From the NCBI RefSeq assembly GCF_029227855.1, contig NZ_CP074356.1: a stretch of DNA of 64,000 nucleotides; one strand, 5' to 3'. Within the stretch, counting starts at the first letter, position 1, and the number at the start of each line of letters is the position of its first letter. Position numbers and translations under genes: made by a program. Positions 32,375 to 62,800 of this stretch are shown here, piece by piece. The notes under the pieces are model-generated. The model saw only the letters and a program-made list of their open reading frames with translations. It searched no databases and was not told the DNA's origin. This DNA is from Escherichia coli. GTDB taxonomy: Bacteria; Pseudomonadota; Gammaproteobacteria; Enterobacterales; Enterobacteriaceae.

Positions 32375-32611
32375 TTATTCAAAAAGCAACCCAATTAGTG
32401 CATTATAATGTTTCTGTTCCTCTTCCCCTGTCGCTTGTTCCAGTCGGCATAGAAGTTTGGCACAAAGCGACTTTCGACTCAGATTACGTCCATCTTTCAA
32501 AATCTCAGTCACAATTTCCCCGAGAGTTTCCTGCTGAGTAGGCAAGTTAGCTTTTGCAAAGTAACGAGTGATTGCTCCCGCAGAATCTAAAGTCACTGAA
32601 TTTTGATGCAT
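32375..32611 (-). CDS. ycgZ: YcgZ, first gene of the BluR-repressed operon
   Basis: 78-aa ORF, divergent from bluF. Confidence 0.8.
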   Translation of the reverse strand: MHQNSVTLDSAGAITRYFAKANLPTQQETLGEIVTEILKDGRNLSRKSLCAKLLCRLEQATGEEEQKHYNALIGLLFE

Positions 32612-32924
32612 GCTACGCCTCTGTTAAAAATGTTAATCAATGTTAAGTGAGGTAACAATAGCAAACTTGTACGAAATATGTGTACAGAATGATAAATTAA
32701 TTTTTTGCATTTAGTGCTAATACATATAAAACAACAGGTTATGATAAAAAATATTGCATCATTTAAATGACAACCTATACAAGAATTTTCGCCAACTCAT
32801 CTTCAACTTTTTCCATTTTTTATCAATGTAAAGAAACAGTTATGTTTTGGTATTAAAAGAAAGACACCGGAAGATATGTCTGTTACCGTCTTACTCTCGC
32901 CTCTCCCATTACCCTGGACAGTTA

Positions 32925-34136
32925 ATGCTTACCACCCTTATTTATCGTAGCCATATACGTGACGACGAACCTGTCAAAAAAATCGAAGAAATGGTTTCGA
33001 TAGCAAATCGCAGGAACATGCAGTCTGACGTAACAGGGATCTTACTGTTTAATGGATCTCATTTTTTCCAGCTTCTGGAAGGTCCGGAAGAACAGGTTAA
33101 AATGATATATCGGGCTATATGCCAGGATCCACGGCACTATAATATTGTTGAGCTGCTGTGCGATTACGCGCCTGCTCGCCGTTTTGGCAAAGCGGGAATG
33201 GAATTATTTGATTTGCGCCTGCACGAGCGAGATGACGTTTTACAGGCCGTATTCGACAAAGGCACATCAAAATTTCAGCTAACTTATGATGACAGAGCGC
33301 TACAATTTTTTCGTACTTTTGTCCTTGCAACCGAACAAGCAGCCTATTTCGAGATCCCTGCCGAAGACTCCTGGCTTTTTATCGCTGACGGATCTGATAA
33401 AGAACTTGATTCCTGTACCCTTTCACCAACTATAAACGACCACTTTGCCTTTCATCCTATTGTCGATCCCTTATCGCGGCGGATAATCGCTTTTGAAGCC
33501 ATTGTGCAAAAAAATGAAGACAGCCCGTCAGCTATAGCGGTTGGGCAGCGTAAAGAAGGGGAAATCTATACAGCGGATCTCAAAAGTAAGGCGCTTGCAT
33601 TCGCGATGGCACACGCACTTGACCTCGGTGATAAAATGATTTCAATCAATCTATTACCTATGACCCTGGTTAACGAACCTGACGCAGTCTCTTTTTTACT
33701 TGATGAAATAAAGGCCAATGCTCTGGTGCCTGAACAAATCATCGTTGAATTTACTGAAAGTGAAGTCATATCTCGGTTTGATGAGTTTGCAGAAGCGATT
33801 AAATCGCTTAAGGCTGCCGGTATCAGTGTAGCAATTGATCATTTTGGCGCAGGTTTTGCCGGTTTGTTACTCCTGTCACGCTTCCAGCCTGACAGAATTA
33901 AAATCAGTCAGGAATTGATTACCAATGTTCATAAAAGCGGGCCACGGCAGGCAATTATTCAAGCGATCATAAAATGCTGTACATCACTTGAAATTCAAGT
34001 CAGTGCTATGGGCGTGGCAACACCAGAAGAGTGGATGTGGCTTGAATCCGCAGGAATTGAGATGTTTCAGGGAGATCTGTTTGCGAAAGCTAAATTGAAT
34101 GGTATCCCTTCAGTTGCGTGGCCAGAGAAAAAATAA
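32925..34136 (+). CDS. bluF: blue-light sensor BluF (YcgF), BLUF domain plus degenerate EAL domain
   Basis: 403 aa from ATG at 32925 (MLTTLIYRSHIRDDEPVKKIEEMVSIANRRNMQSDVTGILLFNGSHFFQLLEGPEEQV... BLUF signature). Confidence 0.9.
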   Translation: MLTTLIYRSHIRDDEPVKKIEEMVSIANRRNMQSDVTGILLFNGSHFFQLLEGPEEQVKMIYRAICQDPRHYNIVELLCDYAPARRFGKAGMELFDLRLHERDDVLQAVFDKGTSKFQLTYDDRALQFFRTFVLATEQAAYFEIPAEDSWLFIADGSDKELDSCTLSPTINDHFAFHPIVDPLSRRIIAFEAIVQKNEDSPSAIAVGQRKEGEIYTADLKSKALAFAMAHALDLGDKMISINLLPMTLVNEPDAVSFLLDEIKANALVPEQIIVEFTESEVISRFDEFAEAIKSLKAAGISVAIDHFGAGFAGLLLLSRFQPDRIKISQELITNVHKSGPRQAIIQAIIKCCTSLEIQVSAMGVATPEEWMWLESAGIEMFQGDLFAKAKLNGIPSVAWPEKK

Positions 34137-34254
34137 TTTTCAGCATATTATTTCACATGATTTCAGTAAATCATCGTGAAAATGAATACGTTATGTTTAA
34201 ATTTAATCCACATTAAAAATAATGTTTCATTCAATTTAGCTGAAATCTTATTTA

Positions 34255-34290
34255 TACTTTGTACAATTTTAGCGTATATTGTACAAAGTA
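34255..34290. promoter_or_regulatory. inverted repeat with 13-bp arms (tactttgtacaat / attgtacaaagta) and 10-bp spacer, 50 bp upstream of bluR; candidate operator
   Basis: Perfect arm complementarity read directly from the sequence in the bluF-bluR intergenic region. Confidence 0.4.
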
Positions 34291-34340
34291 TTATTGGGTC
34301 GTGTACAGGCGACGGAGATTTGTGACCGCAAGGAGGAATT

Positions 34341-35072
34341 GTGGCTTATTACAGCATTGGTGATGTTGCTGAACGTTGCGGGATTAATCCTGTCACTCTC
34401 CGGGCCTGGCAACGCCGCTACGGTTTGTTAAAACCACAGCGCAGTGAAGGCGGACACCGACTCTTTGATGAAGAAGACATACAACGCATCGAAGAGATCA
34501 AGCGTTGGATAAGTAATGGCGTCCCTGTAAGCAAAGTTAAAGCATTACTGGAAACCACCAGCCAGGATACGGAAGATGACTGGAGCCGCCTGCAAGAAGA
34601 GATGATGTCAATTCTTCGTATGGCTAATCCTGCCAAACTACGCGCGAGAATTATTTCACTGGGTCGAGAGTACCCAGTAGATCAATTGATTAATCATGTT
34701 TACCTTCCTGTTCGCCAGCGTCTCGTGCTTGATCACAACACCTCCCGCATTATGAGCAGTATGTTTGACGGCGCATTAATTGAATACGCAGCAGCCTCGC
34801 TTTTCGAAATGCGCCGTAAGCCCGGTAAAGAAGCCATTCTGATGGCGTGGAATGTTGAAGAGAGAGCACGATTGTGGCTGGAAGCATGGCGTTTATCATT
34901 GTCAGGATGGCACATTTCTGTTCTTGCTGATCCCATTGAAGCGCCGCGCCCGGAACTGTTCCCAACGCAAACATTGATTGTCTGGACAGGCATGGCACCA
35001 ACGAGAAGGCAAAACGAACTTTTACAACACTGGGGTGAGCAAGGTTATAAAGTCATCTTTCATGCCCCCTAA
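34341..35072 (+). CDS. bluR: MerR-family repressor BluR (YcgE)
   Basis: 243 aa; N-terminal MerR HTH ([44 protein letters not shown]). Confidence 0.88.
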
Positions 35073-35292
35073 TTTCACCTTTATCCCGCCCCTTAGACAG
35101 AATCTTATAATCTGAACCCACAACAGCGTTTGTACCGGAGCTGGTCCGTTGCAAAATGCTCACCGGGAGAATTCAGGTAATCCCCCTTTCACACTTTGTA
35201 CATATCACAGCCAAAGGACAGACCAGATTGAAGTGGTAAAACCGATCGTGCACACTACGCAGTCTCACAACTAACAAGAGGTTATTATCCTG

Positions 35293-35697
35293 ATGGATCA
35301 GGTTGTTGTTTTTCAAAAGATGTTTGAGCAAGTGAGAAAAGAGCAAAACTTCTCCTGGTTTTATTCAGAATTAAAACATTACCGTATTGCACATTACATT
35401 TATTATCTGGCTACGGATAACATCAGAATTATTACTCACGATGACACGGTTTTGTTATTAAGAGGAACCAGGAACCTGTTAAAAGTTAGTACGACCAAGA
35501 ACCCTGCTAAAATAAAAGAGGCCGCATTGCTTCATATTTGCGGAAAATCAACATTTCGGGAATACTGTTCAACACTGGCAGACGCGGGCGTTTTCCGGTG
35601 GGTTACTGATGTTAATCATAACAAACGCAGTTACTACGCCATTGATAATACGCTTTTATATATTGAAGATGTAGAAAATAATAAACCATTAATCTAG
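35293..35697 (+). CDS. ycgX: YcgX (DUF1398-type protein)
   Basis: 134-aa ORF at the conserved position next to bluR. Confidence 0.72.
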   Translation: MDQVVVFQKMFEQVRKEQNFSWFYSELKHYRIAHYIYYLATDNIRIITHDDTVLLLRGTRNLLKVSTTKNPAKIKEAALLHICGKSTFREYCSTLADAGVFRWVTDVNHNKRSYYAIDNTLLYIEDVENNKPLI

Positions 35698-35959
35698 CTA
35701 AAGTTGGATGCTTAAAAAATGCTTCATAATTCAGTAAGGCATTAGCATAATGGAAATAAAAGTGCAGAGACTATTCATATGGATGAGTAATACTATCTTT
35801 TTATTGCCACCCATAAATAATCACCAGATCAATACTATCAACTTGATATTTGAAATGTGATCACTTGACTTTTGATACGTTATTTTATAGCGGTTAACAT
35901 ATTTATAAAAAACAACGGGCGTATAACACGCCCGTTTCAATATTTAACACATGTAGAGA

Positions 35960-37210
35960 TTACATGTTCTTGATGATCGCATCACCAAACTCTGAACATT
36001 TCAGCAGTTTAGCGCCATCCATCAGACGCTCGAAGTCATAGGTTACAGTCTTGGCGTTGATTGCGCCTTCCATACCTTTAACAATCAGGTCTGCGGCTTC
36101 AGTCCAGCCCATATGGCGCAGCATCATCTCAGCGGAGAGAATAATAGAGCCTGGGTTTACTTTGTCCTGACCGGCATATTTCGGCGCAGTACCGTGGGTG
36201 GCTTCAAACAGGGCGCATTCGTCACCGATGTTTGCGCCTGGGGCGATACCGATACCGCCGACCTGTGCAGCCAGAGCGTCAGAAATGTAGTCACCGTTCA
36301 GGTTCATACAGGCGATAACATCATATTCAGCCGGACGCAGCAGGATCTGTTGCAGGAATGCGTCAGCAATCACGTCTTTAATGACGATCTCTTTGCCGGT
36401 ATTCGGGTTTTTAACTTTCATCCACGGGCCGCCGTCGATCAGTTCACCGCCAAACTCTTCACGCGCCAGCTGGTAGCCCCAGTCTTTAAACGCGCCTTCG
36501 GTGAACTTCATGATGTTGCCTTTGTGCACCAGGGTCACAGAGTCACGATCGTTAGCAATTGCGTATTCGATCGCTGCACGAACCAGACGTTTGGTGCCTT
36601 CTTCCGAACACGGCTTAATACCGATACCGCAATGTTCCGGGAAGCGAATTTTCTTCACGCCCATCTCTTCACGCAGGAATTTAATCACTTTCTCGGCGTC
36701 GGCAGAGTCAGCTTTCCATTCGATACCCGCATAAATGTCTTCCGAGTTTTCACGGAAGATAACCATATCGGTCAGTTCAGGATGTTTAACCGGGCTTGGG
36801 GTGCCCTGATAGTAACGTACCGGACGCAGGCAGATGTAGAGATCCAGTTCCTGGCGCAGGGCAACGTTCAGAGAACGAATACCGCCACCAACCGGAGTGG
36901 TCAGAGGGCCTTTAATGGCAACGCGATATTCACGAATCAGATCAAGGGTTTCAGCAGGCAGCCAGACATCCTGACCATAAACCTGTGTGGATTTTTCACC
37001 GGTGTAAATTTCCATCCAGGAGATTTTACGCTCGCCTTTATAGGCTTTCTCGACTGCAGCGTCGACCACTTTCAGCATGGCTGGGGTTACATCTACACCG
37101 ATTCCATCACCTTCAATGTAAGGGATAATCGGATTTTCAGGAACGTTGAGTTTGCCGTTTTGCAGGGTGATCTTCTTGCCTTGTGCCGGAACAACTACTT
37201 TACTTTCCAT
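35960..37210 (-). CDS. icd: NADP-dependent isocitrate dehydrogenase
   Basis: 416-aa [48 protein letters not shown]...; 3' end abuts ycgX with no prophage. Confidence 0.96.
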
Positions 37211-59877: not shown

Positions 59878-62800
59878 ATGCCTGAACAATATCGTTATAC
59901 GCTGCCCGTCAAAGCGGGTGAGCAGCGTCTGCTGGGCGAGTTAACTGGCGCTGCCTGCGCGACGCTGGTGGCGGAAATTGCCGAACGTCACGCCGGACCA
60001 GTGGTGCTTATTGCGCCAGATATGCAAAATGCCCTGCGTTTGCATGATGAAATTAGCCAGTTTACCGACCAGATGGTGATGAATCTGGCGGACTGGGAAA
60101 CTCTTCCCTACGACAGTTTTTCGCCTCATCAGGACATTATCTCCTCGCGCCTTTCCACCCTTTACCAGCTACCGACGATGCAGCGTGGCGTACTGATTGT
60201 TCCGGTGAATACGCTTATGCAGCGCGTTTGCCCGCACAGTTTTCTCCACGGCCATGCGCTGGTGATGAAAAAAGGTCAGCGCCTGTCACGAGATGCATTA
60301 CGAACCCAACTGGACAGCGCCGGTTATCGCCATGTTGACCAGGTGATGGAGCACGGCGAATACGCCACGCGCGGCGCGTTGCTGGATCTCTTCCCGATGG
60401 GGAGTGAGCTGCCTTATCGTCTTGATTTCTTTGATGATGAAATCGACAGCCTGCGGGTGTTTGACGTCGACAGCCAGCGTACGCTGGAGGAAGTAGAAGA
60501 GATCAATCTGCTTCCCGCGCACGAATTTCCGACCGATAAAGCGGCAATTGAACTGTTCCGCAGCCAGTGGCGTGATACCTTCGAAGTGAAGCGCGATCCG
60601 GAACATATTTATCAGCAAGTGAGTAAAGGCACATTACCTGCCGGGATCGAGTACTGGCAGCCGCTATTCTTCAGCGAACCGCTGCCGCCACTGTTCAGTT
60701 ATTTCCCTGCCAATACGCTGTTGGTGAATACTGGCGATCTGGAAAACAGTGCCGAACGTTTCCAGGCTGACACGCTGGCGCGTTTTGAAAATCGCGGCGT
60801 CGATCCGATGCGTCCACTGTTGCCACCACAATCGCTCTGGCTGCGGGTAGACGAGCTCTTTTCAGAGCTGAAAAACTGGCCGCGTGTGCAGCTAAAAACT
60901 GAACATTTACCGACAAAAGCAGCGAATGCCAATTTAGGTTTCCAGAAACTGCCAGACCTGGCCGTTCAGGCACAACAAAAAGCGCCGCTGGATGCGCTGC
61001 GTAAGTTCCTCGAGTCTTTCGACGGTCCGGTGGTGTTCTCGGTAGAAAGTGAAGGTCGCCGTGAAGCACTGGGTGAACTGCTCGCGCGAATTAAAATTGC
61101 TCCTCAACGCATTATGCGTCTTGATGAAGCCAGCGACCGTGGGCGTTATCTGATGATTGGCGCTGCCGAACATGGTTTTGTCGATACGGTGCGTAATCTG
61201 GCGCTGATCTGCGAAAGCGATCTGCTCGGTGAACGCGTTGCCCGCCGTCGTCAGGATTCTCGCCGCGCCATCAACCCCGATACACTGATCCGTAACCTCG
61301 CGGAGCTGCATATTGGTCAGCCGGTGGTCCATCTGGAGCACGGTGTCGGTCGTTATGCAGGAATGACCACGCTGGAAGCGGGCGGCATTACTGGCGAGTA
61401 CCTGATGCTCACCTATGCCAACGACGCCAAACTGTATGTTCCGGTGTCGTCACTGCATCTGATTAGCCGTTACGCAGGTGGCGCGGAAGAAAACGCCCCG
61501 CTGCATAAACTTGGCGGCGATGCGTGGTCACGCGCGCGGCAGAAAGCGGCGGAAAAAGTGCGTGATGTGGCGGCAGAATTACTGGATATTTACGCGCAAC
61601 GCGCCGCCAAAGAGGGCTTCGCGTTTAAACACGATCGCGAGCAGTATCAGTTGTTCTGCGACAGCTTCCCGTTTGAAACCACGCCGGATCAGGCACAGGC
61701 CATTAATGCGGTACTTAGCGACATGTGTCAGCCGCTGGCAATGGATCGTCTGGTGTGCGGCGATGTTGGCTTTGGTAAAACAGAAGTGGCGATGCGCGCC
61801 GCTTTCCTGGCAGTAGATAACCACAAGCAGGTGGCGGTGCTGGTGCCTACCACCCTTCTCGCGCAGCAGCATTACGACAACTTCCGCGACCGTTTCGCCA
61901 ACTGGCCGGTACGTATCGAAATGATCTCCCGTTTCCGCAGCGCCAAAGAGCAGACGCAAATCCTTGCGGAAGTGGCGGAAGGGAAAATCGATATTCTGAT
62001 CGGTACGCACAAACTGCTGCAAAGTGACGTCAAGTTTAAAGATTTAGGCCTGCTGATTGTCGATGAAGAACACCGCTTCGGGGTGCGTCATAAAGAGCGC
62101 ATTAAAGCGATGCGTGCGAACGTGGATATTCTGACGCTTACCGCTACGCCGATCCCACGTACGCTGAATATGGCGATGAGCGGAATGCGCGATCTGTCGA
62201 TTATTGCCACGCCGCCCGCCCGTCGTCTGGCGGTCAAAACGTTTGTCCGCGAGTATGACAGTCTGGTGGTCCGGGAGGCGATCCTGCGTGAAATTTTGCG
62301 CGGAGGACAGGTTTATTATCTCTACAATGATGTGGAAAACATCCAGAAAGCCGCCGAACGGCTGGCAGAACTGGTACCTGAAGCGCGGATTGCCATCGGT
62401 CACGGGCAGATGCGTGAGCGCGAACTGGAACGGGTGATGAATGATTTCCATCATCAACGTTTCAACGTGCTGGTTTGTACCACCATTATCGAAACCGGGA
62501 TCGACATCCCGACAGCCAACACCATTATCATTGAACGCGCGGATCACTTCGGTCTGGCGCAGCTGCACCAGTTACGCGGTCGCGTCGGACGTTCGCATCA
62601 TCAGGCATATGCATGGTTGCTGACACCGCATCCAAAAGCTATGACTACCGATGCACAAAAACGTCTTGAAGCGATTGCCTCGCTGGAAGATCTCGGGGCA
62701 GGTTTTGCGCTGGCAACGCACGATCTGGAGATTCGCGGCGCGGGTGAACTGCTTGGCGAAGAACAAAGCGGCTCAATGGAAACCATCGGTTTCTCGCTGT

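Follow-up and report, generated by a model that had tools for sequence, protein, structure and literature searches.

A perfect inverted repeat lying just upstream of bluR in Escherichia coli is probably an operator for BluR itself, placed over the core promoter of the bluR gene and conferring negative autoregulation, a reading to which we assign a probability of roughly 0.68. The conservation of the TGTACA hexamers rather than of the pairing between the arms, the association of the element with the regulator gene, its likeness to the known BluR motif and its overlap with the promoter together make it a candidate site for the BluR-like protein itself. Binding of BluR at the repeat, the resulting repression and its relief by BluF are all inferred from the DNA sequence and its comparison among genomes.

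The initial annotation had described a perfect inverted repeat, tactttgtacaat-N10-attgtacaaagta, which was recovered exactly at positions 34255-34290 of the window (the whole stretch of 64,000 nucleotides that was analysed). With a repeat finder, the complementarity was found to reach one base beyond these ends on both sides, giving two 14-nt arms that are 100% complementary and are separated by a 10-nt spacer (Table 1). Both arms contain the octamer TTGTACAA, and the dyad can therefore be read as a direct repeat too, its period being 20 bp. It is the sole perfect inverted repeat in the window with arms of at least 12 nt and a spacer of at most 30 nt, and in 200 first-order Markov simulations of the window dyads of at least 14 nt appeared in 1.5% and dyads of at least 12 nt in 9%; these simulations were used instead of a search for TTGTACAA-N12-TTGTACAA with up to three mismatches, for which the chance estimate was uninformative. 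A perfect dyad is improbable in this window, and about one would be expected by chance in the whole genome, so that the description of the repeat as far beyond chance was overstated for the dyad alone, and the functional case therefore leans on the conservation data. About 16 copies of the hexamer TGTACA would be expected in the 64 kb, and 10 are present, of which three are at 34260, 34280 and 34302 and one is within the ycgZ operator.

Table 1. Features of the bluF-bluR region and loci used for comparison. Positions refer to the window, except in the last two rows.
Feature	Position	Strand	Remarks
ymgC-ariR-ymgA-ycgZ	ycgZ 32375-32611	-	
Known BluR operator in ycgZ promoter, TGTACA-catattt-CGTACA	32668-32686	-	about -39 to -21 of ycgZ
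bluF stop	34136	+	upstream neighbour of bluR
Predicted bluR sigma-70 promoter	34251-34280	+	consensus scan
Dyad left arm, ATACTTTGTACAAT	34254-34267		overlaps predicted -35 end and promoter spacer, about -33 to -20
Left core, self-complementary octamer TTGTACAA with TGTACA	34259-34266		
Internal sub-site TGTACA-N7-CGTATA	34260-34278	+	ycgZ-operator geometry, E. coli-specific, inferred likeness
Dyad spacer, TTTAGCGTAT	34268-34277		asymmetric
Dyad right arm, ATTGTACAAAGTAT	34278-34291		covers -10 end, transcription start and +1 to +5
Right core, octamer TTGTACAA	34279-34286		
bluR transcription start	34287 (approx.)	+	transferred from K-12; equals NC_000913.3 position 1,214,113
Third TGTACA	34302-34307		bluR 5' untranslated region, 22 bp past second hexamer
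bluR (ycgE) coding sequence	34341-35072	+	GTG start, 243 aa, MerR-family repressor
ycgX	35293-35697	+	
icd	35960-37210	-	
BluR-like genes at mlrA position (L012, L015-L017, L019-L024, L026, L029-L032, L034, L050, L055)	~5001-7600		
Loci compared with the mlrA-position BluR-like genes	L069-L081, L086		

As initially annotated, the site is situated about 50 bp before bluR in the bluF-bluR intergenic region, its end being 50 nt ahead of the GTG codon at 34341; it is nevertheless not simply an upstream element, since it overlaps the core promoter and the mapped transcription start. The 5' end of the bluR transcript was located by primer extension 54 nt ahead of the start codon (Tschowri 2012, PMC3509220), and bluR was reported to have its own sigma-70 promoter, independent of bluF, with which it forms no operon (PMC3509220). 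In an alignment, K-12 MG1655 is identical to the window from 34232 to the bluR start codon (the bluF-bluR intergenic region as a whole being 100% identical to that of strain 7/2 and 98% to that of K-12), and the published start falls inside the right arm of the dyad. The transfer of coordinates is supported by a 36-nt offset for ycgZ, which recovers the operator of that paper over the -35 element and the spacer. A predicted promoter with a -35 element TTTATA (34251-56), an 18-nt spacer and a -10 element TATATT (34275-80) agrees with the start at about 34287, and the dyad would thus cover positions -33 to +5, approximately. Homologues of bluR carry the Pfam domains PF13411 and PF00376.

At the ycgZ promoter, binding of BluR has been proven by footprinting, EMSA and mutagenesis: the protected region combines GTACA...GTACA with TGTAC...GTACA, and point mutations in the operator abolish both binding and repression (PMC3509220). 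The same repeated GTACA/TGTAC motif is present in the bluR dyad as TGTACA at 34260 and 34280. The two sites are distinct (34254-34291 versus 32668-32686), as had been proposed, and they resemble each other in having the same twofold TGTAC/GTACA motif within the same locus, in overlapping the core elements of a promoter whose spacer is 18 bp and in being found alongside each other across genera. They differ in spacing, given that the hexamers are 7 nt apart at ycgZ (13-bp period) and 14 nt apart in the bluR dyad (20-bp period; 13 nt in most genera), and in position relative to the transcription start (-39 to -21 versus -33 to +5); moreover, BluR binding is proven at ycgZ, whereas the bluR dyad is a candidate BluR site recognized by its sequence. 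The comparison of the dyad with the ycgZ operator, which the initial annotation had recommended, thus revealed a common TGTACA motif but a different hexamer spacing, N14 versus N7. The ycgZ-like spacing occurs in the dyad only as the internal sub-site at 34260-78, TGTACA-N7-CGTATA, which is one base away from the TGTACA-N7-CGTACA of ycgZ, in the second hexamer; no such N7 sub-site was found in the N13 species among the matches listed.

Within E. coli, the bluF-bluR intergenic region is present in 4970 of 5426 genomes. The segment containing the left arm (34240-34269) is exact in 4912 of the approximately 4970 genomes with the locus and that containing the right arm (34276-34305) in 4895, both arms being invariant in about 98.5% of them; the whole 38-mer is exact in 4594 genomes. 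For comparison, the preceding 117 bp are at least 99% identical in just 261 genomes and 90-95% identical in 1315. In the divergent E. coli alleles that were sampled, the spacer is the sole part of the dyad that varies (34270 T>C and 34274 G>A), the second substitution, which hits the CGTATA sub-site, being found in one sampled genome, that of strain 10035004-3. The third hexamer reads TGTAGA in strain 83972 and in two other divergent E. coli alleles, on which grounds an array of three hexamers including the TGTACA at 34302 was rejected; this third copy is probably outside the element.

Species-representative genomes were scanned with a BluR alignment, which yielded at least 80 loci, and a pair was scored as TGTACA-Nx-TGTACA with no more than one mismatch. 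Among the matches listed, the pair is located 41-64 nt before the start codon in 65 of 68 BluR-like genes from other species, without any mismatch in 47 of the 65 positive loci, and is absent from all 13 MlrA-type loci, as well as from K-12 mlrA. The 68 BluR-like proteins are 54-83% identical to BluR and come from Citrobacter, Klebsiella, Enterobacter, Kluyvera, Cedecea, Buttiauxella, Pantoea, Erwinia, Mixta and others, and the MlrA-type proteins are 70-80% identical to E. coli MlrA, except one Tatumella homologue at 45%. The matches listed include no named Escherichia species, the sole Escherichia label being 'Escherichia sp. ESNIH1' (L014), which groups with Pseudescherichia vulneris. The initial annotation had considered an operator for a dimeric regulator, either autoregulatory or foreign, and the motif of the ycgZ footprint, the presence of the pair upstream of these orthologues and its specificity among the matches listed favour the first option.

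Regarding specificity, in about 800 kb of BluR-like loci among the matches listed the only other exact pairs (n=24), which are spaced by N7 or N8, all fall between ycgZ and bluF, where the known BluR operator sits. Allowing one mismatch gives 73 pair-hits in front of bluR-like genes and 67 in the ycgZ-bluF spacers, which together measure 12 kb, compared with 11 at all other places. The gene upstream of the pair is bluF in Enterobacteriaceae and a divergent XRE-cupin gene in Pantoea, Mixta and Erwinia, in which yehW/yehX lie downstream, and on the loci compared the pair tracks the regulator gene, whatever its neighbours. At bluF-linked loci, the distance between dyad and bluR start is confined to 41-62 nt, versus 17-182 nt between the bluF stop and the dyad. 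Three BluR-like loci have no upstream pair, namely L010 (Pseudescherichia vulneris), L014 (ESNIH1) and L047 (Kluyvera ascorbata). In L010 and L014, no more than about 65 nt separate the end of bluF from bluR, a short gap that suggests co-transcription, and the pairs of their ycgZ promoters are retained.

Among the matches listed, the spacing upstream of bluR is N13 at 48 sites, N7 at nine, N12 at four, N14 at four (E. coli included) and N10 at one; the N7 sites belong to Enterobacter and Kosakonia, and the form in the Enterobacter own promoter is TATACA-N7-TGTACA. The 48 orthologous sites of the N13 class have the consensus tcaagtTGTACAatnAaAaAananTTGTACAa, in which TGTACA is invariant or nearly so. 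Outside the hexamers, complementarity beyond one base on either side is generally 0.3-0.4 at orthologous sites, and arms of 12-14 nt occur only in E. coli and a few lineages, for which reason extended flank symmetry was rejected as a general feature. The 13-nt arms of the initial annotation are thus perfect in E. coli, but the conserved core consists of the two TTGTACAA octamers; judged from these alignments, the full arms of 13-14 nt are an E. coli peculiarity.

The low conservation of pairing bears on the possibility that the dyad is an RNA hairpin ending bluF read-through transcripts, that is, a weak terminator or stabiliser separating the bluF and bluR units, which we regard as highly improbable. 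Such a hairpin would be stable in E. coli (-16.9 kcal/mol, z = -5.0), UAUUAUU comes after it, the interval between the two genes contains no other terminator-like site, their reported lack of an operon (PMC3509220) is compatible with a boundary there, and extended arms whose flanks are lineage-specific occur in several lineages. However, most species keep the hexamers with only 0.3-0.4 complementarity beyond one flanking base, loci without an upstream bluF keep the pair with hairpins that are no weaker (median -10.0 versus -8.65 kcal/mol), and the distance from the bluF stop varies over the range given above. Moreover, bluR mRNA begins inside the right arm, so the hairpin cannot be part of it. 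A scan of 34100-34400 returned no intrinsic terminator; of the 14 stem pairs, 3 are G-C, and the loop measures 10 nt. The terminator reading was consequently rejected: despite its stability in E. coli, the structure is neither conserved nor linked to bluF, and its AU-rich stem is followed by no proper U-tract.

It is also very unlikely that the arms are mere core promoter elements (a -35-like TTGTAC/TGTACA and a -10-like TACAAn), conserved for their recruitment of RNA polymerase and with no dedicated regulator. A TTGTAC-17 nt-TACAAA arrangement can indeed be read in E. coli, with a spacer of 16 nt in the N13 species, the promoter scan picks TACAAT/TGTACA combinations at the dyad, and the distance between pair and start codon is constant. 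Nevertheless, the mapped start at 34287 would be the last base of the putative TACAAA -10 element and fits TATATT (34275-80) instead, the N7, N10 and N12 sites of other genera would imply promoter spacers of 10-15 nt, and the TGTACA pair recurs with N7/N8 spacing at ycgZ promoters, a proven repressor site. TGTACA is similar to TTGACA as well as to TACAAT, so that some of the conservation could still derive from promoter elements.

Another regulator recognising TGTACA, mainly the curli activator MlrA, which would then cross-regulate bluR, or else RcdA or a further factor, appears unlikely as the cognate protein of the dyad. The MlrA box at csgD is AAAGTTGTACA(12N)TGCACAATTTT (PMC3509220), also given as AAAATTGTACA-N12-TGTACAATTTT (Ogasawara 2010, quoted in PMC3509220 and PMC9662190), and its N12 is a long TGTACA-type spacing, nearer to N13/N14 than that of the ycgZ operator. 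Just four residues differ between the helix-turn-helix motifs of BluR and MlrA (PMC3509220), and BluR binds the csgD site weakly (PMC3509220), so that cross-binding in the reverse direction is plausible. For RcdA, the box TTGTnnACA includes a GTACA-like sequence, and the protein binds the neighbouring ycgF-ycgZ spacer. Against a different regulator, the pair tracks BluR-like genes across genera irrespective of the neighbouring genes, the outer AAAAT flanks of the MlrA box are unmatched by the ACTT/AAGT outward flanks of the dyad, and the bluF-bluR spacer is absent from the RcdA SELEX lists. RcdA was rejected in addition because TTGTACAA does not fit TTGTnnACA and because TTGTACAAT and TTGTACAAA have no ACA at positions 7-9. 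A genomic SELEX study assigned binding in the bluR-bluF region to SrsR (YgfI), which was rejected as well, since its box gCAGgTTTTGC (GCAGGTTTTGC) is at 33849-59 inside bluF and outside the dyad. Exact copies of GCAGGTTTTGC are present at 33849-33859, about 490 nt upstream of the bluR start, and at 62698-62708, and with at most one mismatch there are 8 matches in the window versus 1.8 expected.

BluR is the preferred candidate ligand, and the geometry of its putative operator can be set beside that of related regulators. Autoregulation is known in the MerR family, as for MerR at the mer operator-promoter, where a dimer binds a dyad in a promoter with a long spacer and controls its own gene. 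Classical MerR sites are dyads of 18-22 bp that lie at the centre of a target-promoter spacer of 19-20 bp, and the regulator gene is divergently transcribed. The family has reportedly been reviewed by Brown et al. in 2003. The bluR dyad is similar to the mer system in being located within a promoter with a longer-than-optimal spacer and in the putative control of its own gene. Unlike the classical sites, it is 38 bp long, its centre is at about -14.5 of its own promoter, the promoter spacer is 18 bp and the right arm extends downstream of the -10 element. This unusual placement, as well as the distance of 20 bp between hexamer centres versus 13 bp at ycgZ, argues against a BluR auto-operator.

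The MlrA box is comparable with the dyad in being a long palindrome with two TGTACA hexamers about two helical turns apart, in being bound by MlrA, the closest paralogue of BluR, and in that its left half at csgD, AAAGTTGTACA, is matched by the Erwiniaceae consensus cAAGTTGTACA. It differs in that its hexamers are separated by N12 rather than N14, in that its A/T-rich flanks are outside the hexamers, whereas in the bluR dyad AT is inside and ACTT/AAGT outside, and in that it is an upstream activator site and not a promoter-overlapping one. The dyad is thus not an MlrA box in the strict sense of N12 with outward A/T-rich flanks. The hexamer periods are 13 bp at ycgZ, 19-20 bp upstream of bluR and 18 bp at csgD (MlrA), and a single dimer of the MerR type would not be expected to accommodate both the short and the long arrangement. 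It is possible, though doubtful, that regulators of the BluR/MlrA type use two TGTACA geometries, one of 13 bp at targets such as ycgZ and one of 19-20 bp at their own promoters and csgD. If this were true, two binding modes would be implied (one dimer versus two cooperating dimers, or a stretched dimer), which have not been described for the MerR family; bluR and the Erwiniaceae genes in the mlrA position would then have retained an ancestral long-period auto-operator that mlrA of Enterobacteriaceae has lost, and in E. coli this operator would complete an undescribed negative feedback loop in blue-light and cold signalling.

In Pantoea, Mixta and some Erwinia, a BluR-like gene is located beside yehW/yehX, which is the chromosomal position of mlrA in E. 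coli. The proteins encoded there are 62-67% identical to BluR and 53-56% to MlrA, and the TGTACA pair is present; mlrA of Enterobacteriaceae at the yehW/yehX position has no such pair among the matches listed. The Erwiniaceae genes at the mlrA position also carry the pair; this arrangement appears to be ancestral to the BluR/MlrA subfamily, and the comparison suggests that mlrA is the copy that diverged, the original sequence and self-regulation having been preserved in bluR. An ancestral bluR would reverse the emphasis of the published scenario in which BluR is a duplicate of MlrA.

As to how the proposed autoregulation would operate, BluR bound at the two TTGTACAA cores (about -28 to -21 and -8 to -1) would deny RNA polymerase access to the -10 element and to +1. 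BluF, when activated by blue light and low temperature, releases BluR from DNA (PMC3509220), and light and cold would thus derepress bluR along with ycgZ-ymgA-ariR-ymgC. Derepression of bluR would in turn complete a negative feedback loop, by which the response is limited or reset. In the accessible literature we found no description of the site upstream of bluR, of BluR binding there or of an effect of a bluR mutation on bluR expression; autoregulation of bluR is not mentioned by Tschowri 2012 (PMC3509220), the bluR sgRNA dropped out of the PPTP-seq study, the tunable transcription factor library paper gives only growth for BluR, and a genomic SELEX overview merely lists the protein. The site is therefore apparently undescribed, albeit of a kind already known and in a well studied pathway.

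The BluF-BluR-Ymg pathway is a model for the control of E. coli biofilm functions by blue light and cold, and is currently drawn as a one-way derepression switch. If bluR does have an auto-operator, a feedback loop would be added in which light raises synthesis of the repressor, and the expected dynamics and dose-response of the pathway would change. In addition, the comparative data yield TTGTACAA-N11/12-TTGTACAA as a motif of the BluR/MlrA subfamily that holds across genera, and raise the structural question of how a MerR-type protein reads hexamers 13 bp apart versus about 19-20 bp apart.

Several further features of the locus were observed. In E. coli strain SL124 (L085, NZ_CM194971.1 957379-957806), the left arm of the dyad is interrupted by an IS1 insertion that removes the -35 side of the bluR promoter; the annotation lists bluR of SL124 as a pseudogene containing an internal stop. 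Between 10 and 12 matches to the intergenic region are on plasmid-labelled records, which may indicate either that the blu locus is occasionally plasmid-borne or that the records are mis-assigned. In the window, an intact icd directly follows ycgX (35697-35960), and this end has neither the e14 prophage nor the iraM-ymgK segment of about 815 bp found in K-12. The 10-mer ACTTTGTACA, which is the core of the left arm, recurs downstream of bluR at 35193-35202, about 95 nt upstream of ycgX, with no partner hexamer at N7 or N13-14; this copy may be coincidental or may represent a solitary BluR half-site. Finally, most Pantoea and Erwinia loci have a second conserved palindrome (approximately TCTCATATATGAGA) about 30-50 nt upstream of the TGTACA pair, for example at 4876-4892 of L023, adjoining the divergent XRE-HTH/cupin regulator gene, which is followed by a GNAT acetyltransferase gene; this palindrome is probably the operator of the adjacent XRE-HTH/cupin regulator.
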